A DNA stretch of 53,849 bases, counting the filler, from Jimgerdemannia flammicorona (taxonomy: Eukaryota), in assembly GCA_003990765.1 (NCBI GenBank). It is 3 parts of 3 records of this genome, joined end to end, with 100 filler letters (N's around TTAATTAATTAA, not from the genome) between each part and the next. Parts side by side here need not be neighbours in the genome. Positions count along the whole stretch, not along the records: positions 17,990 to 35,870 come from RBNJ01002375.1; 2 more parts are not named here. One strand, 5' to 3'. Numbering within the stretch: position 1 is the first letter of the stretch; every line of letters starts with the position of its first letter. The notes below the pieces were generated by a model. That model did not search any database, had not been told where the DNA came from, and was given only the letters and a program-made list of their open reading frames with translations. The position numbers and the translations under genes are program-made. Below, piece after piece: positions 2,898 to 37,148 of this stretch.

Positions 2898-5846
2898 GGT
2901 GTTATAGATACTACTTGAGATATTAGTGCAGAGTGTGATAGGGTTCTTTGAGTCAGTGTAAGTTGCTAAAGTAATAGTTGTGGGTCTGGAGTGAGGGCTC
3001 AATAGATAGCTGTCTATTGCTGTATAGGTGTATTCTGTTCTAATAGAGGTGTATCTTCTTCAATAGTATATCTGAGATCGAATTCACTGAGATACTCCTC
3101 CTCCTCTTGGCTTTAGTCCCCATGTAATTGGGTTTGCTCAATGTCAAAGTAAAGAGAATTAGTTATATATCTGATTTCAGAAGGACTTAATTTAAAGTCA
3201 AGTTCTGGTTCAGTATTGGTTTTGGGTTCAGATAGGGCTATAGCTAGATCTGTTTCTGAGTCAGGGTCAGATTATTGATGAAGAGTTTCTCTTACTTTTT
3301 CCTTAAGAATATGGTAGGCCTTGCTGTTCTGAAATTGGTAGTATAATGTGGTCTTAGTCCTGGTATGGTGAAAGTTGGTAGAGTTGAGCCACTTGGCTAC
3401 AGAGACTTGGGCTTCATGAGGAACTAAGACTAGAAAGACTGCTGCTGATTGTTCTAGATTGCTCAGATTTGTGAAGCTGACAAAACTCTTATTGAGAAGA
3501 GTAAAGAAGGCTTCTATAAGACCTTCTTCATCTTGATTTGCTGGGTATAGTACAAGGAGTTCAGTGTATAGGGTTTTATCTATCTGCTGATTTAACTGGA
3601 GTACTTCTTTCTTCAAATGAAGTTTGTCCCACTTATTGCAGATGTGGAGGTCAAATTGTTCTTGTATGTCAGGTTCAATTCTCTCTAGATTGTCAAATGA
3701 TTTAGGATAAATTTTAGTTTAGAGATTGGGCTTTATACCAACTTGTAGGAATTCTCAGAGGGGTTTATAGTAGGGTGAAGAAGTATCTTAAAGCAGAATT
3801 GGATTGTAAACTGCTGCTACCAAGTTGTAAGTGGGTTACTTATTAAGATAACCATTATATAGTTCTGGAAGATTTTTCTGGAAGTTCTGAATATTCTAGA
3901 AGACTGTTTTCTTAAAGTTAAGATCAATTTCATATAGAGTATATCCTCTATGCTTATTGATTTTGAGATCAGGTTAACATCTCAACCAAAGTCCTTATTT
4001 GGACTAGTTTTGGATGTTCAGAATTTTCCATATTTCAGGAAGTTCAAGAAACTAAGACCAGCTTAGTTGAATTGGCATATCACTACAGACAATACTCAAT
4101 TAGGAAATTTCATAATATGGTTAGGAGTGGGACCTAATGGAGAGCAGATTTACTTAAGAGTAGTTTATGAGTTATTAAATAGATTTATTCATTATTTATA
4201 ATATTGCTATACTAGAAATAGTTGTGTGAAGGAATATTGTGAGAAAGTATTCAAAAATGTTCTTATGTATTCAAGTCTGAGATTCTGAGGTCTGGAGGAG
4301 GGGGTATTTATACTTATCTGGACTATATTGGATATGGATGTAGCACTTAGTACTTTGCTGAGTTGGAATGTAGTCATATAGTACAAGTGTGATCTGACAT
4401 ATTAAGAGATCATCTAACTGCTGAGTTAGTTCATAGTTATATTGTACAAGGCTAATCTAACTATACTATGACTGCTAAGCTATCTATAGATTTAGATGCT
4501 GTCTGAATAGTCTTTAATGACATCACCATTGATGATATCATCTCTGATGAAGTAGTCATCTAGGAAGAGTTATTTGCAGATTAATTCTTCTTGTTCACTG
4601 AGGTAATAATATATTGAGACTTCATCACTGTCCCATAGAATAGCATCATCTGTCTCATATGCTGGGTAAGATATTGGTGGACAAAGGAGGAATATATTAT
4701 CTTTACTTTCATCAGATTTACTATCTATGTATCTCCTATAAGTTATAGCACTATAAGTTACTGGGTTGTAGTAAGCTGGTAACTGTGGTTCATGTTGCTT
4801 ATACTTGGGTGACAGAGTTGTTGGTTTGATCTTGAGGGTTGTCTGGAGATATAGATTGTGTTCTCTAGTCTCTTCATTATAGTTGAAGTAATTGGAGATG
4901 AATACAGATTGGTACTCATACCAGTGGTCATTGTTCCAATAAGTCTCATAGATGGTTATGAACTATTGTAAATTTATTGACAAAGTTGGCAGAGTGATCA
5001 GGATTGGTAGAGATCCTTGGCTAGAGGTCATGTTAGTATCAGAGGGATCATTGTCTTCTACTTTATCTTCATCAAATCAAATTATATTATAGATGTCCTT
5101 CATGGTATATCCAACTTGAGACATTTACAGAATATAGTTATCAGGGTGTAGGAAGATTCTGTCTGTGGTCTGAATATACTCAAGGTACTTGTGGTTAAGT
5201 TCTTATATCAGGTCATCTATTTGGCCATAGGACAGAGTAGTGACTATTTCAGCAGTAGTAATTTAGAGGCAGAGAATAACAGTGCTATACTTATAAAAGA
5301 GTTCTTGATGTTTGTAGGCAATGAGTTTCTGGTGTTGAGACATCTGAATAATGTCTGTATTATAGTGGTATTTAACCATATCTTCTAGAAGGCAGCTGAT
5401 CTGATAGTAGCTTGAGATTTGTCCAATTTAGTAGGCTTCACTAAGTATGTTCAGAGCATTCCATTAGGTTTCCATGAAGTAGAGCTATGGATATTCATGA
5501 GGGGCAGAGGGGGTATGGCTCAGTTGACAATGGCATTCCAAATGTCAGCATGGATGCAGTTGTAGATCTTGGTGGCCATATTTATATATATGTTCAGGAG
5601 TTTGGGATTATTTGTTTGGTTTGTTTTGGTTCTCTGTTTCAATGTGTCTCAGTGCTCAGTATATATACATTTGGTCCTGATTGATAAGATTCTATTTGTA
5701 TGAATCTTGTATTCCATGACTTTGAGTTGACTCAACTTTGTGTGCTATGACTTCAGTTTGACTCAGCTTCATGATCTTGCAGGTGATTTCCAGATTTGTT
5801 CAGGGGTTGCATGTAATTTCAGTGACTTGGAGGTTGTGTGCTTACA
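2898..5846 (-). mobile_element. Partial Ty3/Gypsy family A (long-LTR variant A1): 5' LTR 3826-5846, PBS 3811-3822, start of polyprotein; interrupted by the hAT
   Basis: Reverse complement is colinear with 6802-9790. LTR termini TGTAAG...CTTACA. PBS TGGTAGCAGCAG. Confidence 0.9.
4492..5579 (-). pseudogene. Decayed second copy of the A1 LTR-internal cargo ORF
   Basis: Begins MATKIYNCIHADIWNAIVN, versus MTTEIYTRIHTDIWNAIVN at 7089. Same stop position; about 10 bp shorter. Confidence 0.7.
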
Positions 5847-6796: not shown

Positions 6797-6801
6797 ATGT
6801 C

Positions 6802-8862
6802 TGTAAGTGCACAACCTCCAAGCCGCCAGAATTACACGTCACCCTCTGAACAAGTTACTGAAATCACACATGACCCTGAACAAATCTGGAAATCACCTGC
6901 TTAATCACGAAGCTGAGTCAAACCGAAGTCACAGCACACAAATCTGAGTCAATACGAAGTCACAGAACACAAGGTTTATATAAACGGAATCTTACCAATC
7001 AGGACCAAATGTATATATACCGAGCACCGAGATGCATTGAATCAGAGAACCAAAACAAACAACAACCACAACTTCCAAACACACAAACATGACCACTGAG
7101 ATCTATACCCGCATTCACACTGACATTTGGAATGCCATTGTCAACCGAGCCACACCCCCTCTACCCCTCATGAATATCCATAGCCTGGCACCCCTCTACT
7201 TCGTGGAAGCCTGATGAAACACTCTGAACATACTTAGCGAGGCCCACCGAATCAGACAAATCTCAAGCTACTATCAGATCGGCTGCCTCCTAGAAGACAT
7301 GGTCAAACACCACCATGATACAGACATTACCCAGATATCTCAACACTAGAAGCTCATCACCCGCAAACATTGAGAACTCTTCTATGCGTACAGCACCTTT
7401 ATTCCCCGCCTCCGAGTTACTACTAGCAAAATGATTGCTACCCTGTCCTATGGCCAAATCGATGACATGATACAAGAACTCAACCAGAAGTACCTCAAGT
7501 ATGTGGAAACCACAGACCGAACCTTCCCCCACCCCAATGATCACATCCTGCAAATGCCCCAAGTTGGATATGTCATGAAAGACATCTATGATATAATCCA
7601 CTTCGACGAAGACGAAGTAGAAGACAATGATCTCTCCGATGCCGACATGACCTCTAGCCAAGGATCTCTGCCAACCCTGATCACACCGCCAACCTTACTG
7701 ATGAACTTACAATAGTTCATAACTGCATACAAGACTTATTGGGACAATGACCACTGGCATGAATACCAACCTGCATTCACCCCCGATTACTTCAACTACA
7801 ATGAAGAGACTGGAGAACACAACCTGTACCTCCAGACAACCCTCGAGATTGAACCAACCACTCCACTACCTGAGTACGAGTAACATGAACCACAGCCACC
7901 AGCTTACTACAATCCTGCAACTCATAGTGCTGTAACCTATAGAAGATACGCAGATAGTGAATCTGATGAAAGTGAAGACAATATACCCATCCTTCACTCA
8001 CCAATACCTTATCCAGCATACAAGACAGACAATGCTATCCTGTGAGATGGAGACAAAGTTCCAATGTACTATTACCTTAGCAAACAAGGAGAAATAATCT
8101 GCGAATCATTATTCCTAGATGACTACTTCATCAGAGATGATACAATTGATGGTGATGTCATCGAGGACTACCCAGACAGCGCCTAAACCCATAAATAGCC
8201 TAGCAGTCATAGTATAGTTAGATTAGCATTGTACGATGTGACTGTGAACTAACTCAGCAGTCAGACGATCTCTTGACATGTCAGATCACACTTGTACTAC
8301 ATGACTGCATTCCGACTCAGCAAGGCACTTAGTGCTACATCCATATCTAGCATAGCCCAGATAGCCCCTCACTAGTATAAATACCCCCTCCCCCAGACCT
8401 CAGAATCTTAGACTTGAACACACAAGAACATTCCTAAATACTTCTCCACAATATCCCTTTACATAACTACTCCTAGTATAGCAATATCATGAATAGCAAA
8501 TAAACCTATTCAATAACCCACAACCCACTCTTAAGTAAATCTGCTCTCTGTTAGGTCCCACTCCTAACCCTATCATGAAATTTCCTAATTGGATATTGTC
8601 TGCAGCGATACACCAATTCAACTAAGCTGGTCTTAGTCTCTTGAACTTCCTGAAATACGGAAAATCCTGAACATCCAGAACTAGTCCAAAAAAGGACTTT
8701 GGTTGAGACATCAACCTGATCTTGAAATCAATAAGTATAGAGGACGTACTCTATATGAAATTGATCTTGACTATAAGAAAACGGTCTTCCAGAACATCCA
8801 GAATATCCAGAAACCCTTCCCAGAACTATGTAACAGTTATCCTAAAAAGCAACCCTCTTACA
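6802..8862 (+). repeat. 5' LTR of A1 (2061 bp)
   Basis: Matches 3826-5846 along its length and 14533-15215 over its last ~680 bp. TATAAA at ~8376. Confidence 0.9.
7089..8186 (+). pseudogene. ~365-aa unknown ORF wholly inside the LTR U3 (cargo ORF A1)
   Basis: 366 codons in one frame from ATG 7089 to TAA 8186. Internal stops are each one transition from a sense codon, with no frameshift. Includes track ORF 7431-7715. Acidic/Pro-rich C-terminal half ends DDTIDGDVIEDYPDSA*. Confidence 0.7.
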
Positions 8863-8865
8863 ACT

Positions 8866-8877
8866 TGGTAGCAGCGG
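8866..8877 (+). promoter_or_regulatory. Primer-binding site, probably for initiator tRNA-Met
   Basis: TGGTAGCAGCGG 3 nt after the LTR end, complementary to a ...CCGCUGCUACCA tRNA 3' end. Same motif at 3811, 30337 and 41246. Confidence 0.8.
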
Positions 8878-10889
8878 TTTACAATCCAATTCCGCTTCAA
8901 GATGCTTCCTCACCCTGCTACAAACCCTTTCAAGAATTCCTACAAGTTGGTATAAAGCCCAACCTCTGAACTAGAATTTATCCTGAACTATCTGACAATC
9001 TGGAGAGAATTGAACCTGACATATAAGAACAATTTGACCTCCACACCTGCAATAAGTGGGATAAACTTCATTCAAAGAAAGAAGTACTCTGGTTAAACTA
9101 GCAAATAGGTGAAACCCTATTCACTGAACTCCTTGCACTACACCCAGCAAGTCAAGATGAAGAAGGTCTTATTGAAGCCTTCTTTACTCTTCTCAATAAG
9201 AGTTTTGTCAGCTCTACAAATCCAAGCAATCTAGGACAACCAGCAGCAGTCTTTCTAGCCTTAGTTCCTCACAAAGCCCAAGCCTCCATAGCCAAGTGGC
9301 TCAACTCTACTGACTTTCACTGCACCAGAACCAAGACCGCCTTATACTACTGATTCCAGAACAGTAAGGCCTGCCATATTCTTAAGGAAGAAGCAAGAGA
9401 AACCCTTCATCAACTACCTGACCCCGAACCTGAAGCAGGCCCTGCTATAGCCCTACCTGAATCTGAAACCAATACCGAACCTGAACTTGACTTTGAATTA
9501 AGTCCATCTGAAATCAGATATATAACTGATTCTGTCTACTTTGACGCTGAGCAAACCCAATTACATGAGGACCAAACTGAAGAAGAGGAGGAGTATCTCA
9601 GTGAATTCGATCCCAGATATACGACCAAAGGAGAAGTACCTCCATCAGTACAGAATACACCTACACAGCAACAAACAGTTATCTATCAAGCCCTCACTCC
9701 AGATCCACAACTACTACTCCAGCAACTTACACAGACCCAAAGAACCCCATCACACTCTATACCAGTACCTCAAGTAGTACCAGTAACACCACTATCAGCA
9801 GTTCAAGCACCTCCAGTAAACAATATGGCAAACCAACAGATTCTTGATCTCACAGCCCAAGTAGCTATAATGGCAGCAACTATTACTGTCTTAGCTGAAC
9901 AGACCCAACCTACCAAAAATCTGAGCCTACCTACCTTCAATGGTACTGCACAAGAAGTCCAAAGCTTCATTAGTATAGTTGACACCAACTTCGAAGCCAA
10001 TCAATGGACCAATGAGTGAGTTGCTGACCGCATTCTGACAAACAATCAAGACCACACTCTGGAACAACTCTTTGCTACAACTACAGCCTATGTCTGTCGA
10101 GTTGTTACATTCTTCCGAGGACCTGCTGAAGAATGGTGGTGAACCCTTCCTGAAAAACCCCTCACATGGGATACCCGACCTGCAGTAGTTGCTCAGAATG
10201 CAGCAAACAATGCCCCAGGATATAGAGCCCATCCTGCAGCCCCTGGACTCAAACAACTCATGATTGCTCAATACTGCAGCGAAACCATGATTGCCAAATC
10301 TTAAGTAAAACTCCGCAACCTCAAATTTGATATACATGGCAAAGAAGAATTCAAAACCTTCTGTACAAAACTCGAGTCACTCCTGAACACTGTTGGCCTA
10401 GGATACATCACCAATGATGAAGCACGAAATGGTACAAGAGCAGATCATTTATTTAATGCTCTACTGGAATGGCTTACAAGAAAAATCCAAGAGAAAGGCT
10501 GCCCAGTTAGTTGTGATCACCAACAATGGTGCCTGGTAAGAATCAAGACCATGGTCAAGTGAATTCTAACAGCTGGACCAATTCTGCCTCGAAGACAATT
10601 CAACAACAAGGAAAGGACTTGGACTAAGAAAGAAGAACCCAAGCATGAAGCACCCCGAGCTCCCTCCACATCCACCTCTTGGACACCCAGAAATCCTGAA
10701 CCCACCCAGCCCAGTACCTTTAAGAAACTTACTGAAGGCAAAAGGAATGAACTTTGAAGAAGTAGAGTATGCTTCTATTACTGAAAGACAGGACATATGG
10801 CCAGTACCTGCCCTAACCAAAAACCCCGAACAGCAACATGAGCAACTGTTACCACTCTGTACTATCTCAACAACCTGACCACCAGAATA

Positions 10890-11300
10890 CTAGACTTTGT
10901 CAAGTTAAGACAAACTGCTAAGGCCCCAACCAAAGGAAGTCAAAAAGCAGCCAGATATGATCTATATGCAGCTGAAGAAGCTACAGTTTCTAACCGAGAA
11001 GTCAAACAAGTCTATATAGGAATCAGTATCCAAATCCCAGAAGGACATGTTGGAAGAATATGCTGTCGCAGCAGCCTAGCATTGAAAGGACTCTCAGTAG
11101 AAGGAGGAGTCATTGACAAGAATTACACAGGCGAAATTATTGTCCTCATCTGAAACCACAGTTGGACACCCTTCAAGATCCCTATTGGTTTCTGCATTGC
11201 CCAGATCCTATTCGAAAAAATCGAGTCAACTCTGACAGTCAAGGAAGTCTCTGAACTACTGCCTACTATCCAAGGATCTAAAGGATTTGGCTCATCAAAC
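10890..11300 (+). pseudogene. dUTPase domain between nucleocapsid knuckle and protease
   Basis: All five trimeric dUTPase motifs: A(R/G)YDL (AAGYDL in the copy at ~32420), RSSLA, GVIDKNYTGEI, IAQI, QGSKGFGSS. Confidence 0.9.
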
Positions 11301-24300: not shown

Positions 24301-25658
24301 CCACCCACGCTGTCCTTCTCCTTGGCCCCCGCAGCCGTGCCGCGCTTTGGAACCGAGAACGATGACGTTTTCTTCTTCTTGGCCAGCTTGGCCGACTTCT
24401 GTGCTGACTCATGTGTTAGTTCCTCTTCGCCCAGTATCCTCTGCGCGACTTTCCGCACCGCCGAGGTATTTTCGCACATCTTCCTCGCGTACGACAGAAT
24501 CTCCTTCGCCTTATCAACACTGTCTTCTGCGAGCAACCATTCCACTAGAGTATCGTATGTGGCGCAGGTGAAAGGGTCGAGGATGAGGGCGCGGTAGATG
24601 TCGATCAGCGCGCGAAAGGTGTTGATCCCGTGCCTTGTGGCGCGAGCCACCCAGCGGTTCGGATCGCGTGGGCAGGCCTTAATGTTATTAGTTAGGGCCT
24701 CGACGGTGCGGGCCACGATGATTTTGAAGTCGGGAATGGGTATAACGCCTGCTTTGACGTCGTCAGACCGGGCGGCCTTATCGATGTAATCCATGACGCA
24801 GACGGTTAGGGCGGCGGAGAGAGGTAGGGTGATCCGCTTGGCGTCGACGAGGTGGTTGACGGTGTCGCGGACGGAGGGGGGCGTCCTAATGTGGTCGTCT
24901 AGCAGCATCAAGACTTCGTCAAGGTTGTCCAGCTCCTTGCAATTTTCCAGAAAGTCCATGAAGTCGGACATATAGTTGGGGCAGTTGACAATCATGTCGC
25001 CAACGATCATAAACCAGGCGTGGATGGAATCAAGAAGTTCGAAGTGGCTTCGATCGATCAAAGATTCGTCGTCGATAGAGATGATGCCTGCAGTTTTGCT
25101 CCACTCGACAAATTTCGGATCGTTATCCCAGCGGAGAGTTTTGGTGGCCTTTGGGTTAAGTCCTTTGAGATTGAAAGCCAACGGTCGGAGAATGTCCTGC
25201 TCGAGGTTGACAAGGTACTTGCGGCGCCATCTAGGTTCATTGATTGACCAGAATATTTCGGCAGGATGCTTTGAATAATCCTCCTCCTCCTCCTCCTCCT
25301 CCTCCTCCTCCTCCCCCTCCTCTTCCACCCTCTCCTCCTCCTCCGCCTCTTCTTGATCAGAGATATTTTCAGAGCTGTCGTCAGCTGGAACAACAAACGA
25401 TGAAATTAGCCAGACACCCCATTTACATGTTCGTTCACACGTGGCACACTTACCCGGATCACTGAGCACGTCGTCGCGCTGGTTGCCCAAATCGTCGCTG
25501 TCGCTATCGCCCTGTAGTGGAGGCAAGTCGTCGCTGTCGCTATCCCCCTGCAGTGGAGGCAAGTCGTCGCTGTCGCTATCACCCTGTAGTGGAGGCAAGT
25601 CGTCGCTATCGTCGCTGGACTCTGTGGGGTTGTTGTTGTTCCGTTTGATATCGTTCAT
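21331..25658 (-). CDS. TTC3/DZIP3-domain, TPR-like protein with a C-terminal UIM (~1330 aa, 4 exons)
   Basis: Exons 25658-25454, 25384-23933, 23787-23139 and 23011-21331 join in frame through GT-AG introns. The spliced product FKWPESSDIIPESDP...HPPPPDAVC..C...IEC..C.LEYHKGCYRKL...CPTPDCNGLI follows the animal TTC3 pattern as recalled. TPR-like helices precede it. UIM-like EEEQMQKAIQASLDD at ~22036-22080. Confidence 0.8.
25490..25615 (-). repeat. 36-bp coding tandem repeat (SDDLPPLQGDSD x3)
   Basis: Visible directly in the DNA and the translation. Confidence 0.9.
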
Positions 25659-25895
25659 TCTTGGTTGAAGTAAAGCACGTCGCGGTGCACTCGATCTTGT
25701 TTGCAACAAAACCAGACAAAGTGAACATGTGACATCATCAGTGGCTTGGTTGAATGTTTTCGTTATATGTAGACAGTTTTCGCCCGCAACACTGAAAAGG
25801 GAGGCAAAACAAGACCGACGTGGTAAGTGAACACGGAATATTTTATTGATGGAGTACTGCTGCAGCAAATTTTCACCTCTTTACCACTTTACACC

Positions 25896-27010: not shown

Positions 27011-28445
27011 CTATCACTCATTTCTAGTCCAGATATATATAGAAGCAGAACAATAAGAAGTAGTCATTATCTGAGAAATATTAGATCTTTTATAATATCT
27101 TTGTATTATACTGAAACCTATTGAGGCCTAAAATGAACCTGTTGATGAATAACTCACTAGTATATATATGTATATATAACCTAGATTATCTAAAATTCTA
27201 TCTGAAATTTCATATACATAACCTATAAGCTATAAGACTAATAAGGAATAAAGAACTATAGGATAAGAAGATGAGGGAGCAAGATAATGAGAGGCCCAGA
27301 GATAGACTGCAGATAGATATTAGATAGTAGACTATAAGATAAATAATAAATAGTAGGCTATAGGATACTATTAACATATATATAACAACTAAGTCAAAAC
27401 TGCATACTATAATATAAATATACTATATGTTCTATCAATTTGTAGCATTTGTATAAAGTTAGAATATTCTTAAAAAACTAAATATCAGAGGACCTCATAA
27501 AGCTTCTGAGTCTAGTCAGAGGATAACTGATCTCTATTACTATAATTACTCTTAATACATGCAGGTACAGGGGGCTGGTATATGTGGGCAGCATATGTAG
27601 GCAGTGCATATGAGTAGTGTATATATGTAAGTACATAACCTCCAAGTCACCAAAATCGCATGGCATCCTCAGAACTAATTTAGAAACCACATGCGAGACT
27701 ACAAAACAAGAAATCATCTAATTATACGAAATATACCAGCAAGTACGAGAACCCACTGCCAAGATATAAGAATACTAGAAGAAGTACTATAACCATAAGA
27801 CTGACTCTGAACTGCTATAATTAGTTTAGTGTACTGTACTATTACAAAAGGAAACCGAAAGTACCAAATTCAAATTGAGACAAGAAGAACCCTATCTCAT
27901 CTACCAAAAGGTTCATGAACTGTACTTATCAACTCAAGACCAAGGTACACTATGACTATACAAGACCTCATTACTTAGCAAAAGCAAAACACATTTGAAC
28001 AACTCTGTTCACTCTATCTGTGTCACCTCCGTTGGAGAGTGACAGATACTTCATCTGAACTCAAGAAAGCCGACAACATCGAAACCAATCTCAAGTCATC
28101 CATGTGACAGATATTACTACTAGAAATTGCCTCGGATTACAGAAAATATCATTTCTGAGAGGTTTGAACCCCCAGCCACAACATTGGGAGCCCTCGCCCT
28201 AGACGAGAATGGCCAGTCCTCGCAAATGTACCAGTAGACCAAAAAAAAAGAGAACCAAGACCTGTTATCCTTATACAACTACCACCACCAAAGACAGTCT
28301 TAATCTTACAAGAGATAGAAGTGACGATATCTTGAAACTAATGATGTCAGAAGTTAGAAAACTGTTCAGACTTTACCAGTGATGATGTCATCAATAGTGA
28401 TGTTATCAAAGACTACTCAGACAGTACCTAAACCTATAAATAGCC

Positions 28446-29612
28446 AGGCTCCTTTCTCTGCTATCTTACCAGTCACAAGGTTTGATAGGCGACCTTCCGA
28501 GTCCCCTTTCCTCTATTATTACCCTCTCTACCTTGGGTTGGTTTGCTGTGCCTGCAGAGGCATGGTGGGAGGAGGGCAATGGTGATGAGTTGCCCCTTTA
28601 TTGGTATCAGATTGGTGCTTCCTCTACTTTTTCATGGATTCTGGTGCCTTTGGCTGTATCTGGGGTATACCCATTTTGGTGTAGCACCTTCTTCCTTTTG
28701 CCATCGCTAACAAGGAGTTGTCTCGGTGTATCTCGGGCTATGTAGGGAGTTGGCTGACCTTGGGTGTCAAGTACTCAGTGTAGGTTACCTGTAGGTCCTC
28801 AGTACCTGTGGTGGGGCCCTCTGGCTTTGGCGAGCTTCCCGGCGAGCATAGTTCTGGCATAGGTGACTGTTTTTCGGGTGTTGTCGGGATGGGAGAGAAG
28901 ATGGCTGTCACAGATAGGAGGAAGGGTGATAACGGTGAACCAGTAGGGTACCAGGCTGGGGGCAGTCATCAGAGCTGGGGCAGGTGCTGCTTTGGTGAGA
29001 CCTTTTGATTGGTGCAGCACAGTTAGGTGGTAGGGTCACTATTGGCTTCCTTTGGCAGTCAGTGGAGTTGGGCCCCAGTCGTCAGGGGGGGTCAGGAGGC
29101 CTGAGGCTACCCATTTCAGGTGTCTTGGCTACACTCAACTAGAACCAAGAGCTGATATGGCAATGTGATCGAGGCCTGCAGACTTAAGTAGTAGGGTATT
29201 GGGAGTTTCCTCCCACCTTACATGTAAGTTCTTTACTCACTTCAACTGGGAGAACCAGGCTCTACCCACCGTATTGTACTTTGATGAGGGTTTTTTCTTT
29301 GCCTGTCATTCTCTTTAGGGTGGCAGAGGCTATTCTATTCGGCTCAGGCATGGCCTTGTACATATGTTGGGTTCTCAGGTGTGTGCTTTCAGTCGTTGGC
29401 ATATGGTTGGATTTCTCCTGGTGGTAGGGAGAGCATGGTGTACAGAATGAGGTGTGGGCCTACATCGGTCCTATTGTACCTGGCATGGTCAAGCTGCTGG
29501 ACAATAGCTAGCCTAGGTTAATGAGAGGACAGTGCTTGGTGGGTGGTGGGGGAGGGTTTTGGCCTATATAGTCTAGGTTCTCTTCCAATAAAAATCTGCA
29601 AGACATGAGTCC

Positions 29613-29658
<46 letters not shown>
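28446..29658 (+). mobile_element. ~1.2-kb poly(A)-tailed non-autonomous retroposon, copy 1, inserted in the A2 5' LTR
   Basis: Absent from the 3' LTR. TSD AAACCTATAAATAGC at 28430-28444 and 29656-29670. AATAAA at 29587; poly(A) at 29616-29658. Confidence 0.9.
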
Positions 29659-29661
<3 letters not shown>

Positions 29662-32600
29662 ATAAATAGCTTAGCAGTCATAGTATAGTTAGATTAGTCT
29701 TATACAATATGACTGTGAACTGACTCAGCAGTCAGATGATCTCTTGACATGTCAGATCACACTTATACTATGTGACTATATTCTGACTCAGCAAGGTACT
29801 TAGTACTACATCCATATCTAGTATAGTCTAGATAGCTCCTCACTAGTATAAATACCCCCTCCCCCAGACCTCAGAATCTCAGACTCGAACACACAAGAAT
29901 ATTCCTGAATACTTCCCCACAATATCCCTTCACACAACTACTCCTAGCATAGTAATATCATAAATAGCGAATAAACCTATTTAATAACCCACAAACCACT
30001 CTTAAGTAAATTCACTCCCTATTAGGTCTCACTCCTAACTCCATCATGAAATTTCCTAATTGGGTATTGTCTGCAGTGATATGCTGATTCAACTAAGCTG
30101 GTCTTAGTTTCTTGAACTTCCTGAAATATGGAAAATCCTGAATATCCAGAACTAGTCCGAAAAAGGACTTTAGTTGAGACATCAACCTGATCTTGAAATC
30201 AATAAGTGTAGAGGATGTACTACATATGAAATTGATCTTGACCATAAGAAAACAGTCTTCCAGAATATCCAGAACTTCCAGAAAACCCTTCCAGAACTAT
30301 GTAACGGTTACTCTAAAAAGCAACCCTCTTATAACTTGGTAGCAGCAGTTCCCAATCCAATTCCGCTTCAAGATGCTTCCTCACTCTGCTACAAACCCTT
30401 CTGAGAATTCCTACAAGTTGGTATAAAGCCCAACCTCTGAACTGGAATTTATCCTGAACCATCTGACAATCTAGAGAGAATTGAACCTGACGTATAAGGA
30501 CAATTTGACCTCCACACCTGCAACAAGTGGGACAAACTTCACTCTAAGAAAGAAGTACTCCAATTAAACCAGCAAATAGGTGAAACTCTATTCACCGAAC
30601 TCCTTGCACTACACCCAGTAAGTCAAGATGAAGAAGGTCTTATAGAAGCCTTCTTTACTCTTCTTAACAAGAGTTTTGTCAGCTCCACAAATCTGAGTGA
30701 CCTAGGACAACCAGCAGCAGTCTTTCTAGCCTTAGTTCCTCATAAAGCCCAAGCCTCTGTAGCCAAGTGGCTTAACTCTACTGACTTTCACTATACCAGG
30801 ACCAAGACCGCGTTATACTACCAATTTCAGAACAGCAAGGCCTGCCATATTCTTAAAGAAGAAGCAAGAGAAACCCTTCATCAACTACCTGACCCCGAAC
30901 CAGAAGCAGGCCCTGCTGCAGCCCTACCTGAATCTGTAACCAACACCGAACCAGAACTTGACTTTGAATTAAGTCTATCCAAAATCAGATATACAACTGA
31001 TTCTATCTATTTTGACACCAAGCAAACCCAATTACATGAGGACCAAACTAAAGAGGAGGAGAAGTATCTCAGTGAATTCGATCCCAGATATACCACCAAA
31101 GGAGATGTACCTCCATCAGGACAGAACATACCTACACAGCAATAAACAGCTATCTATCAAGCACTCACTCCAGACCCACAACTATTACTCCAGCAACTTA
31201 CACAGACTCAAAGAACATCCTCACACTCTGCACCAGTACCTCAAGTAGTACCAGTAACACCACTACCAGCAGTCTAACCACCTCCAGTAAACAACATAGC
31301 AAACCAACAGATTCTAGACCTCACAGCCCAGGTAGCAATAATGGCAGCAACCATTACTGCCTTAGCTGAACAGACCCAACCTATCAAAAATCTGAGCCTA
31401 CCTACCTTCAATGGTACTGCACAAGAAGTCCAAAGCTTTATTAGTGTAGTTGACACCAACTTTGAAGCCAATCAATGGACCAATGAGCGAGTTACTGATC
31501 GCGTTCTGACAAACAATCAAGACCACACTCTGGAACAACTCTTTGCTACCACTACAGTCTATGTCCGCTGAGTTGTTACATTCTTCCGAGGACCCGCCAA
31601 AGAATGGTGGTGAACTCTTTCTGAAAAACCCCTCACATAGGACACCTGACCCACAGTAGTTGCTCAGAATGCAGCAAACAATGCCCCAGGATATGGAGCC
31701 CATCCCGCAGCCCCTGGACTCAAATAACTCATAATTGCTCAATACCACAGTGAAACCATGATCGCTGAATCCCAAGTAAAACTCTGCAATCTCAAATTCG
31801 ATATATATGGCAAAGAAGAATTTGAAACCTTCTGTACAAAACTCGAGTCACTCCTGAATACAGTTGGCCTAGGATATATTGCCAATAATGAAGCATGAAA
31901 TGGTACAAGAGCAGATCATTTATTTGATGCCCTACCTGAATGGCTTACTAGAAAAATCTGAGAACAAGGCCGCCCAGTTGGTTGCGATCACCAACAATGG
32001 TGCCTGGCAAGAATCAAGACTATGGTCAAGCAAATCCTAACAGCTGGACCAATTTTGCCCTGAAGACAATTCAATAACAAGAAAAAGACTTGGACCAAGA
32101 AAGAAGAACCCAAGCATGAAACATCCTGAGCTCCCTCCACATCTACCTCATGGACACCCAGAAATCATGAACTCACCCAGCCAAGTACCTTCAAGAAACT
32201 CACTGAAGGAGAAAGAAATGAACTTTGAAGAAGCAGAGTATGCTTCTATTGCCGAAAGACAGGACACATGGCCAGTGCCTGCCCCAACTGAAAACCCTGA
32301 ACAACACCACGAGCAACTGTTACCACTCTGTACCACCTCAACAACCTGACCACCAGAACACTAGACTTTATCAAGTTAAGACAAACTGCTAAGGCCCCAA
32401 TCAAAGGAAGTCAAAAAGCAGCTGGATATGACCTGTATACAGCCAAAGAAGCTACAGTCTCCAATCGAGAAGTCAAGCAAGTCTATATAGAAATCAGCAT
32501 CCAAATTTCTGAAGAACATGTTGGAAGAATATGCTATCACAGCAGCCTAACATTAAAAGAACTCTCAATAGAAGGAGGAGTCATTGATGAGGATTATATA

Positions 32601-33833
32601 GGCGAAATTATAGTCCTCATCTGAAACCACAGTTGGATACCCTTCAAGATCTCCATAGGTTTCTGCATCACTCAGATCCTATTCGAGAAAATCGAGTCAA
32701 CCCTGATAGTCAAGGAAGTCCCTGAACTACTGCCCACCATCCAAGGATCCAAAGGATTTGGTTCATCAAACAAAGCCCCAGCCCAATCTACTGTGAACAA
32801 AGAAGAACAATTCTATAAGAAAATTGAAGATGGATATGTACCAAGTGGCCAATGCCCCCATGGCATTGGAATGTACTCTTCCCAAATGATCGACAATTGC
32901 TTCTCTTGTGTCAACGAATTAGCTCAAAGAAGAACCAACAGAAGGAAAGCTCCTACAACTGAAATCACCACCATTGGATCAGACAAACTACTTACACTTA
33001 AAGCTTTTGTCAACCGAGCACTTGTCAAGATTATGATAGACAGTGGTGCCTCAGGCAACTTCATCAATGAAGAAACAGCCAATAGACTCAAGGTCTTCAC
33101 CTCTCCAGTACAACAAACTCAAGCAGTTGCCACAGCTGATGGAACCTCACATGTCATCAGCAAGGAAGTCCACAATCTATCCTTCTGAATTGGAGACTAT
33201 CAAGTACATGTTATCCTCTAAATTGTACCACTTCCTGACAATGAAATCATCCTTGGGACTCCATGGTTAAAACAAGAGAACCCTATGATTGATTGGGTAA
33301 ACCATTCTCTAACCATCAAGAAAGAATGCCACAACTTCAAACTGTAAGGTGAAAAGGACCCACTTAGTTCTAGTGACCCTGGACCAAAGATCACTCACAT
33401 CAACAAGCTACAACTTAAGAAATTAGCCAAGAAATGCTCTCTCTTTGCTATCTCCATTCATCTATCCAAAGAAGAACCCAAGAACTCTAAAGAAGACTTT
33501 TCTAAAGTTGACAGCCATGTCAGATTACTACTCCAGAAGGTCCGAGATACATTTCTGAACCAAACCACAAAACCACCTGCACCTGTCATTATTAATGACC
33601 AAGAAGAATACAAAGTTGAACAAATCCTCAACAAACATAGACACAAGAATCATCCAAATGGTACAACAACACCAGAACAAATTAGAAGGCCCTGATGAGG
33701 ACATTGAAAGCTAAGAAGGAGAGAGTTGTAAGCACACAACCTCCAAGCCACCAAAATCACATGGTATCCTCAGAACTAATTTGGAAACCACATGTGAGAC
33801 TACAAAACAAGAGATCATCTGGTTACATGAAAT

Positions 33834-34532
33834 ATGCCAGCAAGTATGAGAACCCACCGCCAAGATACAAGAATACTAGAAGAAGTACTACAACCATAAG
33901 ACTGACTCTGAACTGCTATAACTAGTTTGGTGTACTGTACTATTACAAAAGGAAACCGAAAGTACCAAACTCAAATTGAGACAAGAAGAACCCTATCTCA
34001 TCTACCAAAAGGTTCATGAACTGTACTTATCAACTCAAGACCAAGGTACACTGCAACTATACAAGACCTCATTACTTAGTAGAAGCAAAATACATTTGAA
34101 CAACTCTGTTCGCTCTATCTATATCACCTCTATTGGAGAGTGACAGACACTTCATCTGAACTCAAGAAAGCCAACAACATCGAAACCAATCTCAAGCCAT
34201 CTATGTGACAGATATTACTACTAGAAATTGCCTCGGATTACAGAAAATATCATTTTCGAGAGGTTTGAACCCCCAGCCACAACATTGAGAGCCCTTGTCC
34301 TAGATGAGAATGGCCAGTCCTTGCAAATGCACCAGCAGATCAAAAAAAAAGAGAACCAAGACCTGTTATCCTTATACAACCACCACCACTAAAGACAGCC
34401 TTAATCTTGTAAGAGATAGAAGTAATGACATCTTGAAACTGATGATATCAGAAGTCAGAAAACTGTTCAGACTTTGCCAGTGATGATGTCATCAATAGTG
34501 ATGTCATCAAAGACTACCCAGACCGTACCTAA
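33834..34532 (+). pseudogene. ~232-aa unknown ORF in the A2 LTR U3 (cargo ORF A2; second copy 27733-28431)
   Basis: 233 codons in one frame from ATG to TAA, with stops explicable by single transitions. One TGA of the 5' LTR copy is CGA here. Ends DDVINSDVIKDYPDRT* at the same stop position as the A1 cargo. Confidence 0.55.
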
Positions 34533-35285
34533 ACCTATAAATAGCTTAGCAGTCATAGTATAGTTAGATTAGCCTTATACAATATGACTGTGAACTGACT
34601 CAGCAGTCAGATAATCTCTTGACATATCAGATCACACTTGTACTACATGACTACATTCCGACTCAGCAAGGCACTTAGTACTACATCCATATCTAGTATA
34701 GTCCAGATAGTCCCTCACTAGTATAAATACCCCCTCCCCCAGACCTCTGAATCTCAGACTCGAACATACAAGAACATTTCTGAATACTTCTCCACAATAT
34801 CTCTTCACACAACTACTCCTAGTATAGTAATATCATGAATAGCGAATAAATCTATTTAATAACCCACAAACCACTCTTAAGTAAATCCACTCCCCGTTAG
34901 GTCCCACTCCTAACCCCATTACGAAATTTCCTAATTGGGTATTGTCTGCAGCGATATACCGATTCAACTAAGCTGGTCTTAGTTTCTTGAACTTTCTGAA
35001 ATACGGAAAATCCTGAACATCCAGAACTAGTCCGAAAAAGAACTTTGGTTGAGACGTTAACCCGATCTTGAAATCAATAAGTATAGAGAATGTACTCTAT
35101 ATGAAATTGATCTTAACTATAAGAAAACAGTCTTCTAGAATATCCAGAACTTCCAGAAAACCCTTTCAGAACTATGTAACAGTTACCCTAAAAAGCAATC
35201 CTCTTACAGTATGGGTAGTACATATAGATAGTATATATAAATAGTATATATATAGAGATATAGTATATATGGTCATATGAGCACC

Positions 35286-35870
35286 GCTCCTTTCTCTGCT
35301 ACCTTACCTGTCACAAGGTTTGGTAGGCGACCTTCCGAGTCCCCTTTCTCCTATTATTACCCCCTCTACCTCGGGTTGGTTTGCTGTGCCTGCATGGGTA
35401 TGGTGGGAGGAGGGCAATGGTGATGAGTTGCCCCTTTATCGGTGTCAGATCGGTGTCTTCTCCACTTTTTCGCGGTTTCTGGTGTCTTCGGCTGCGTCTA
35501 GAGTGCATCCGTTTTGGTGCGGCACCTTCTTCCTTTTGCTGTCGTCAACAAGGTGCTGTCTCGGTGTATCTCGGGCTACGTAGGGAGTCGGCCGACCTTG
35601 GGCGTCAAGTGCTCAGTGTAGGTTACCTGCAGGTCCTTGGTGCCTGTGGTGGGGCCCTCTGGCTTTGGCGAGCTTCCCGGCGAGCGCGGTTCTGACGTAG
35701 GTGACTGCTTTTCGGTGATGTCGGGATGGGAGGGGAGATGGCCGTCACAGATAGGAGGAAGGGCGATTACGGTGAACCAGTGGGGTGCCAGGCTGGGGGC
35801 GGTCATCGGGGTTAGGGCGGACAATATTTCGGTGGGGCCTTTCGATTGGCTGGTGGGGGGTGGGGTGGTG
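35286..35870 (+). mobile_element. Retroposon copy 2 (CpG-rich, least decayed; cut by the gap)
   Basis: Colinear with ~28448-29020 and has the same 5' start. Confidence 0.88.
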
Positions 35871-35970
35871 NNNNNNNNNNNNNNNNNNNNNNNNNNNNNN
35901 NNNNNNNNNNNNNNTTAATTAATTAANNNNNNNNNNNNNNNNNNNNNNNNNNNNNNNNNNNNNNNNNNNN
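35871..35970. other. Artificial contig spacer
   Basis: N-TTAATTAATTAA(35915-35926)-N. Confidence 0.97.
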
Positions 35971-37148
35971 TTTTTAACAGAATCAATATCCCACAGATTT
36001 TTATTGGAAGGAAACCTAGACTATATAGGCCAAAACCCTCTCCCACCACTCATCAAGCACTGCTCCTCTATTAATCTAAACTAGTTATTATCTAATATAT
36101 AGCTCAACTATACTAGACATAGGACCTATATTGGTCTGCATCTCATTCTGCACACCATGCTCTCCCTACCACCAGGGGGAACCCAGCCATATGCCAATAA
36201 CTGAAAGTACATATCTGAGATCTCAATATATGTACAAGGCTATACCTGAGCTAAATAGAATAGCTCCTACTATCTCAAAGAGAATGATAGATAAAGAAAA
36301 ACTCTCATCAAAGTATATTAAAGTAGGTAGAGCCTAGTTCTCTCAGTCGAGATGAGTAAAGGACTTACACATGAGGTGGGAGGAGACCCCCAATACCTCA
36401 TTACTCAAGCCTGCAGGCCTTAATCACATTGCTATATCAGTTCTTAGTTCTAGTTAAGTGTAGCTAAGATGTCTGAAATGAGTAGCTTTGGGCTCTCCAA
36501 CTCCCCCCCAATGACTGGGGCCCAACCTGCTGAATTGTCAAAAGAAGCTGAGAGTGATATCTACTACTTAACCACTCTACACCAATCAAAAGGACCTACC
36601 GAAGCAGTATCTGCTCTAGCTTCAATGACCACTCCCAGCCTAGCACTCTACTGGTTCAATGTTGTTACTCTTCCTCCTATCTATAATGGCCATCTCTCCT
36701 TCCATCCTGACAATATCTAAAAAGCATTCACCTATACTAGAACCATGCTCACTAGGAAGCTTGCCAAAGCCAGAGAGCCCTACCACAGATACTGAGAATC
36801 TACAGATAACCTACACTAAGCACTTGATGCCTAAGGTCAGCTAACTCTCTACATAGCCTGTAATATACTAAGACAGCACCTTGTTGGTGACAGCAAAAGA
36901 AAGAAGGCACTGTACCAAAATAGATATATTTCAGATACAGCTAAATACACCAGAAACCACAAAAAAGTAGAGAAGACACCAATCTGATACCAATAAAGGG
37001 GCAACTCATTACCATTACCTCTCTCCCACTGCTCTGCAACAGATACAGCAAACTAACCTGAGATAGAGGGAGTAATAATTGTGGAAAGTGAACTCAGAAG
37101 GTTGCCTACCAAACTATTATAACTAGTAAGATAGTAGAGAAAGAGGGT
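35971..37148 (-). mobile_element. Retroposon copy 3 (most decayed)
   Basis: Reverse complement of the full unit. TTTATT near 36000 and a T-run at the gap edge. Confidence 0.88.

Follow-up and report, generated by a model that had tools for sequence, protein, structure and literature searches.

A 53,849-nucleotide stretch of the Jimgerdemannia flammicorona genome (GCA_003990765.1; the whole stretch is called the window below) contains three elements, A0, A1 and A2, of one long terminal repeat (LTR) retrotransposon family, here termed family A. The elements were delimited by self-comparison of the window and by the LTR start motif TGTAAGCACACAACCTCC, which has four matches at no more than three mismatches in the window versus 0.08 expected. 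The LTRs of these elements have unique 3′ regions (U3) of two unrelated types. We propose that one type, that of A1 and A0, probably holds a real gene that has since decayed, and that the other, that of A2, is a non-coding U3 ending in a relic inherited from the end of that gene. For the A1/A0 type, and for that type alone, there is good support for a sense open reading frame (ORF) that lies wholly inside U3 and is apparently under coding constraint.

In both A1 and A0 the ORF sits between the TGTAAG that starts the LTR and the primer-binding site (PBS), that is, within the LTR, and every copy of it in the window is broken by stops. The A1 copy nevertheless has only 7 in-frame stops versus 22.1 ± 4.6 expected, and a count as low was reached in none of the composition-matched simulations (0/2000); the remaining five frames of the same region have 10–29. 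Each of the seven (TGA, TAG or TAA) is one transition away from CGA, TGG, CAG or CAA, and their positions mostly differ from those of the stops in A0. The ORF shows three-base periodicity (P=2e-12; N-terminal part 5e-4, C-terminal part 4e-11) equal to that of coding regions used for comparison (gag, 3e-14; dUTPase-protease (PR), 3e-7; reverse transcriptase (RT), 2e-5), and its flanks are aperiodic (U3 upstream of the ATG, P=0.92; shared LTR, P=0.5–0.7). The differences between A0 and A1 are distributed over codon positions 1, 2 and 3 as 23%, 8.7% and 27% in codons 115–366 (P=2.6e-7) and as 23%, 9.9% and 19% in codons 1–114 (P=0.026), versus 16, 14 and 12% in a non-coding LTR control (P=0.46).

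An intact protein of 247 amino acids (P0004), encoded on a 998-bp contig, is 64% identical and 81% similar to the product of the A1 ORF over 250 aligned positions. It begins at the residue aligned to M115, matches the A1 ORF in end position and tail (DDVIDDDLIAEYPDSI), and has Q, Q and W at the three stops in the C-terminal part of the A1 frame. P0004 was the sole relative in both a word-indexed protein search and a profile search of 1.84 billion representatives; two other profile matches were repeat proteins and looked spurious when inspected. We take the A1-type ORF to be a real but decayed gene because of its depletion in stops, its periodicity, its conserved second codon positions and the existence of an intact homologue with the same C terminus.

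The encoded protein is acidic, rich in D, P, Y and E, and has no hydrophobic span; the isoelectric point of P0004 is 4.05, with 46 D+E versus 10 K+R. No Pfam family was matched at E≤1 and no relative was found in the PDB (best profile match, E=0.61). The mean predicted local distance difference test score (pLDDT) was 31.6 for the AlphaFold model and 0.39 for the Atlas model, which had no usable Atlas neighbour, and no homology to Sag or to known accessory proteins was seen in Pfam (E≤1), the PDB or Atlas. Comparison of the tail region with shorter proteins yielded zero candidates. Among Joint Genome Institute (JGI) metagenome contigs, the ORF profile gave 570 pattern matches, 0 of which were confirmed by tblastn, and an exact 25-nt pattern from the LTR had none; a 21-nt U5 pattern likewise had no match among viral contigs. 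The ORF product is an orphan protein without a confidently predicted fold. It might be a host-interaction or particle-associated accessory factor, a suggestion that we make with low confidence.

An earlier note on this DNA had described a long frame in each type of U3, both frames running into the same acidic tail and stop, and had seen in this a swappable accessory-gene slot. The A1 frame is upheld, with its 365 codons, 7 stops and coding signatures, and both tails read exactly as quoted there, but the A2 frame and its join to the tail are not. The 232-codon frame ascribed to A2 (33834–34529) has 13 stops. The A2 tail frame as a whole (33729–34529) has 17 stops in 267 codons versus 18.4 ± 4.1 expected by composition, and the three sense frames of the A2 interior have 14, 10 and 6 versus 15.5 ± 3.6. 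The two LTRs of A2 were identical at insertion, and stops present in both copies were counted as pre-existing. There are 13 such shared stops in the tail frame (12 upstream and the terminal one), 7 in a second sense frame (f0) and 9 in the third (f1), and the longest A2 stretch without one is 73 codons. With shared stops at 34434, 34440 and 34443, no more than 28 codons are open ahead of the A2 terminal stop, and f1, which differs from the tail frame, terminates elsewhere, at TGATGA (34481–34486). The A2 tail frame is closed by stops and, therefore, the in-frame join is absent, rather than being a one-in-three coincidence.

The A2 interior is also aperiodic (P=0.14). It has no tandem repeats and no Pfam match in its three sense frames, and no relative of f1, the frame with the fewest stops and the only one searched there, was found in the protein collection. 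Rfam gave 0 matches over the whole window. The A2-type interior is thus most likely non-coding. With tail-frame stops at chance level, no periodicity, shared stops in 3/3 sense frames and no coding signature in any frame of the A2 interior, neither the proposition that each U3 type carries an ORF nor that of a slot for exchangeable genes is supported.

The remainder of the earlier comparison between A1 and A2 was borne out. Their gag-dUTPase-PR regions are 90% identical (A1, 8185–12084; A2, 29656–33555). Both LTRs begin TGTAAG[CT][AG]CACAACCTCC, and the similarity of their 5′ ends, previously given as ~35 bp, is strongest in the first ~35 bp and detectable over the first 73–100 bp. The shared 3′ part, previously ~730 bp, comprises the last ~715–738 bp at ~91% identity (8149–8862 versus 34495–35208), with similarity beginning at ~34471. 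The U3 interiors in between (A1, ~6900–8125; A2, ~33826–34470) are unrelated, as had been stated, with zero DNA or translated similarity, and neither has a further match within the window. Family A therefore consists of U3-variable subfamilies, in which the repeat (R) and unique 5′ (U5) regions and the LTR ends are conserved and the U3 interiors are unrelated.

The A2-type U3 is a propagated subfamily and not a one-off rearrangement. Its interior occurs in each of the two A2 LTRs and, as diverged pieces, in contigs of four public sequencing runs of four studies (three soil metagenomes). The A1 type is found in A0, in A1 and in public-run contigs whose loose ends, at 33761 and 34478, carry A1-type sequence; an additional divergence point, at 34786, was seen in two runs. 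Summed depth in one run (X1) was 370–460 over the A2 interior, 420–990 over the internal region and 1540–2750 over the shared LTR; these sums possibly contain contributions from other organisms and should not be taken as copy numbers. One run guessed to be RNA covers mainly 34809–35142 and not the internal region, and is uninformative on expression; contigs cannot reveal transcript starts or ends.

We propose that family A is a hypermutated Ty3/gypsy family with at least two U3 subfamilies over a common promoter-R-U5 backbone. The A1/A0 subfamily would formerly have carried an intact sense ORF of ~365 codons entirely within U3, lying 3′ of the polypurine tract (PPT) and of the LTR start and 5′ of the conserved TATA box; the ORF starts 288 bp into the LTR and lies ~190 bp upstream of TATAAATA (8376–8383). 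Such a location within U3 means that reverse transcription would copy the ORF into both LTRs, and in genomic RNA it would stand 3′ of pol. Read-through of a pol frame into the LTR was considered but dismissed, since pol stops at a TGA (33693–33695) 5′ of the purine tract, and the ORF is therefore separate from pol. Expression might proceed from a TATA box of its own (TATATATA), giving a monocistronic mRNA that ends at the AATAAA at 8499–8504, or by way of a spliced subgenomic RNA, as for retroviral 3′ accessory genes.

According to this proposal, the ORF-bearing U3 came first and A2 is a non-autonomous derivative; it has no RT, RNase H or integrase core, and the end of its PR abuts a chromodomain-like C terminus. 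In A2, unrelated non-coding DNA (~650 bp) would have taken the place of about 1.24 kb of U3, comprising the ORF promoter region and approximately the first 345 codons. The last ~17–20 codons and the stop would have survived because they were on the retained side of the breakpoint, beside the first TATAAATA of the A2 LTR (34536–34543). That the ORF-bearing U3 is the older is the economical account, since the tail is constrained in the A1 type and P0004 and is preceded by stops in A2. The shared tail makes better sense as a homologous vestige of the A1-type ORF than as a C-terminal module that two genes have in common, and it illustrates how a homologous remnant can mimic a shared protein module when stops go uncounted.

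Several observations weigh against this proposal. Expression of the ORF is presumed, and lower G+C at second codon positions accounts for part, although not all, of the sparing of these positions. P0004 is the only homologue among the 1.84 billion representatives and is known here from its protein sequence. The A2 5′ LTR copy is weakly periodic (P=0.038), and the 6 stops of f1 in the A2 interior are few for the 15.5 ± 3.6 expected (P=0.0025 for a single frame, ~0.015 after six frames). The window offers only two U3 types and three elements, and an A2-type ancestor could have coded before decay. Precedence of the ORF-bearing U3 rests on parsimony from the retained tail, and the three elements are unrootable: comparison of A0, A1 and A2 gives no topology, and the A0 branch is longer and transition-rich.

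The shortage of stops in f1 would fit a U3 that is a swappable slot, the A2 interior being a second, decayed accessory gene that shares, or once shared, the acidic tail. So would the presence of two unrelated interiors flanked by a common LTR start and a common tail, the propagation of the A2-type U3 in many copies, the extra divergence point at 34786, and run depths suggesting that the exact U3 of either window copy is missing from most LTRs that have the shared 3′ part. However, stops in the tail frame are at chance level (17 versus 18.4), and the 12 upstream of the tail, three of which lie no more than 33 codons from the end, pre-date insertion. Frame f1 differs from the tail frame and terminates at its own TGATGA, and the interior has no periodicity, Pfam match or f1 homologue; we consider the swappable slot improbable. 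That U3 is a gene compartment, with an orphan ORF expressed under its own TATA box up to the LTR poly(A) site from both LTRs and from solo LTRs, and with different ORFs in other U3 types of the genome that would make it a modular slot for host-interaction factors, seems to us slightly more improbable still. The opposite extreme is scarcely credible: both U3 types would be non-coding, the A1 frame having arisen by chance on a strand poor in G and P0004 being an erroneous gene prediction from a related repeat. It would account for the breakage of all copies in the window, for the lack of a domain or confident fold (AlphaFold and Atlas scores as above) and for the single database relative, but not for a stop count that 0/2000 simulations attained, for periodicity equal to that of gag and RT, or for the sparing of second codon positions. 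Neither would it explain why P0004, at 64% identity, keeps the frame, collinearity and stop position with 81% similar residues, or why A0 and A1 have different stops and why these align with Q or W in P0004.

A possible, though rather unlikely, alternative reaches the same end state from another origin of the A2 interior: a piece of a different repeat would have nested in a U3 of the A1 type, with a deletion afterwards, or else template switching or recombination would have taken place during reverse transcription. The same region of the LTR does take insertions, as a retroposon (B) lies 12 bp past the stop in the A2 5′ LTR, and it takes deletions, as the junction of the A1 3′ LTR lies at the stop codon. 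On the other hand, the 53.8-kb window has no second copy of the interior, and reading of the sequence revealed neither terminal repeats nor poly(A) nor a target duplication at the edges of the interior. We continue to favour a single decayed U3 gene in the A1/A0 type with a gene-end relic in A2.

Family A belongs to Ty3/gypsy (Metaviridae), as its domains are in the order PR-RT-RNase H-integrase. Pfam matches are, in order, dUTPase (5.9e-32), aspartic protease (2.3e-13), RVT_1 (9.2e-29), RT_RNaseH (4.6e-31), Integrase_H2C2 (5.8e-19) and rve (1.3e-8), and the structural features of the group are present, namely direct TG...CA LTRs, a PBS (ACTTGGTAGCAGCGG, directly 3′ of the A1 5′ LTR), a purine tract and a short target duplication. 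A1 represents one insertion, with the 5-bp duplication ATGTC on either side (6797–6801 and 15216–15220), and its internal region is cut within the integrase C-terminal region at an abrupt junction (14531–14535). A0 is truncated at 2898, inside gag (minus strand). The A2 flanks, ATATA and GTATG, are candidate target duplications that differ by two A/G transitions. At the integrase C terminus, Pfam gave no chromodomain match on 33348–33692 of A2, although an EEYKVEQIL motif is present there (the region is deleted in A1), and YLVKWKG is encoded by the loose ends of other copies at 33649/33679 in public-run contigs. A2 has a small deletion inside this chromodomain-like region (33649–33679), where public-run contigs continue past 33649 encoding PEYLVKWKG, and a variant skipping 33170–33726 was seen in another public run. 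The coordinates of the features are collected in Table 1.

Table 1. Coordinates of family-A elements, ORFs, LTR signals and the inserted B unit in the window.
Feature	Position	Strand	Remarks
A0 5′ LTR	3825–5846	−	Same ORF-bearing type as A1; LTR starts at 5846
A0 ORF	ATG 5579 to stop 4494–4492	−	10-nt deletion; more stops than A1
A1 5′ LTR	6802–8861	+	2060 bp, TG...CA; ORF-bearing U3 type; start motif
TATATATA	7012–7019	+	~70 bp 5′ of ORF ATG, kept in A0; candidate ORF-specific promoter
A1-type U3 ORF	7089–8186	+	365 codons + stop; 7 in-frame stops, no frameshift; by translation
A1 acidic tail DDTIDGDVIEDYPDSA + stop	8136–8186	+	C terminus of A1-type ORF
TATAAATA within block AGTATAAATACCCCCTCC	8376–8383 (A1)	+	Identical in 5/5 LTR copies; presumed LTR core promoter
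AATAAA	8499–8504 (A1)	+	Presumed LTR poly(A) signal
A1 internal region	8862–14530	+	PBS, gag, dUTPase, PR, RT, RNase H, integrase; Pfam
A1 3′ LTR remnant	14531–15215	+	Deletion took integrase C terminus, PPT and U3 to ORF stop codon
A2 5′ LTR, first part	27626–28444	+	A2-type U3; 92.7% identity to 33727–34545, gapless
B unit in A2 5′ LTR	28445–29658	+	AATAAA, 43-nt poly(A), 12–15 bp target duplication (AAA)CCTATAAATAGC
A2 5′ LTR, second part	29659–30331	+	Shared promoter-R-U5
A2 internal region	30332–33726	+	gag-dUTPase-PR fused directly to chromodomain-like C terminus
A2 purine tract AAGAAGGAGAGAG	33713–33725	+	Immediately 5′ of 3′ LTR
A2 3′ LTR	33727–35208	+	1482 bp; PPT adjoining upstream, TG...CA ends
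A2-type U3 interior	33826–34470	+	Unrelated to that of A1; without coding signature; multi-copy in public runs
A2 tail remnant DDVINSDVIKDYPDRT + stop	34482–34532	+	16-codon acidic tail as in A1
Second TATAAATA	34536–34543 (A2)	+	Putative role
Shared core promoter TATAAATA	34722–34729 (A2)	+	Putative promoter
AATAAA	34845–34850 (A2)	+	Putative role

Differences within LTR pairs (8178–8863/14531–15216, 27626–28444/33727–34545 and 29656–30331/34531–35206) comprise 146 transitions versus 3 transversions, a bias strong enough that all copies are taken to be hypermutated. The C-to-T rate depends on context (CpG, 0.52; CpA, 0.24; CpC, 0.16; CpT, 0.02), and the pattern looks like deamination or hypermutation of repeats resembling repeat-induced point mutation.

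Three independent rearrangement breakpoints fall within ~75 bp of the ORF stop codon (34471–34545; equivalents 8125–8200, 14531–14535 and 28444), namely the A1/A2 homology boundary, the deletion junction of the A1 3′ LTR (AGC-C microhomology) and the retroposon insertion. Their clustering may be due to chance or to a fragile or accessible site. The inserted B unit has the signature of retroposition mediated by a long interspersed nuclear element, and could be a unit like a short interspersed nuclear element or a processed transcript. The B repeat is ~1.2 kb long and GC-richer than its surroundings, with more copies at 35286–35849 (+), 35971–37147 (−) and 52674–53849 (+). Two pairs of 44-base N runs are present (17890–17989 and 35871–35970), the second pair between inverted B copies. 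Elsewhere in the window, a 181-amino-acid open frame (46475–47020, minus strand) has a Pfam match to the N-terminal domain of Crinkler effectors (E=1.1e-16), large GC-rich open frames without a Pfam match lie at 21331–25880 (−), 43311–44615 (−), 48038–49900 (−) and 50991–52538 (+), and AT-rich DNA contains a 400-bp direct repeat pair that is 88% identical (16761–17166 and 41258–41663).

Divergence of U3 on a conserved R-U5 is known from Tnt1 and from Ty1/Ty2, and genes in or overlapping U3 are known from mouse mammary tumour virus (MMTV), which has sag, and from complex retroviruses with 3′ accessory genes of the nef and bel type. Like these genes, the A1 ORF is in the sense orientation, downstream of pol, inside U3 and present in both LTRs. 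Unlike them, it belongs to a gypsy-type element without env and is known here from sequence, and it has no sequence relation to them (no Pfam match).

A close parallel to the LTR structure of family A is crapaud of the Podospora anserina complex, whose LTR subfamilies differ mainly in the 5′ half (U3) on conserved R and U5, with recombination or template switching proposed as the source and with copies that bear a heavy C-to-T load (PMC10787394). However, in the portion of that account available (PMC10787394) the crapaud U3 variants are treated as promoter or enhancer variation and not as carriers of a long ORF, whereas one U3 type of family A has a 365-codon ORF. Placement of dUTPase at the N terminus of Pol before PR, together with a chromodomain-like C terminus, is shared with dUTPase-bearing fungal chromoviruses, which include PosPlaTy3 of Postia placenta and elements of Phanerochaete and Tuber (PMC2864245). 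The available part of that report describes no LTR-internal ORF in these elements (PMC2864245); the likeness of family A to them is one of domain features.

Additional ORFs of other retrotransposons are located differently. The ORF3 genes of bdelloid elements are described as lineage-specific, often orphan, fast-evolving and gained or lost among related elements, some families of which also bear dUTPase (PMC5408684), and Retrosat2 has an additional ORF, ORF0, upstream of gag-pol (PMC3485330). As far as these accounts extend, ORF3, which is listed with gag and pol, and ORF0 belong to the internal region, whereas the family-A ORF is inside the LTR; moreover, bdelloids have several coding ORF3 types (PMC5408684), and family A has one supported coding U3 type. 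A limited full-text literature search brought up no retrotransposon whose LTR contains an entire ORF. U3-divergent LTR types are already known; what is unusual in family A is that the U3 of a retrotransposon encloses a whole orphan ORF. Should the protein be produced, any LTR, even a solo one, could serve as an expression unit for an accessory factor, and the element would then be deploying such a factor in a different manner.

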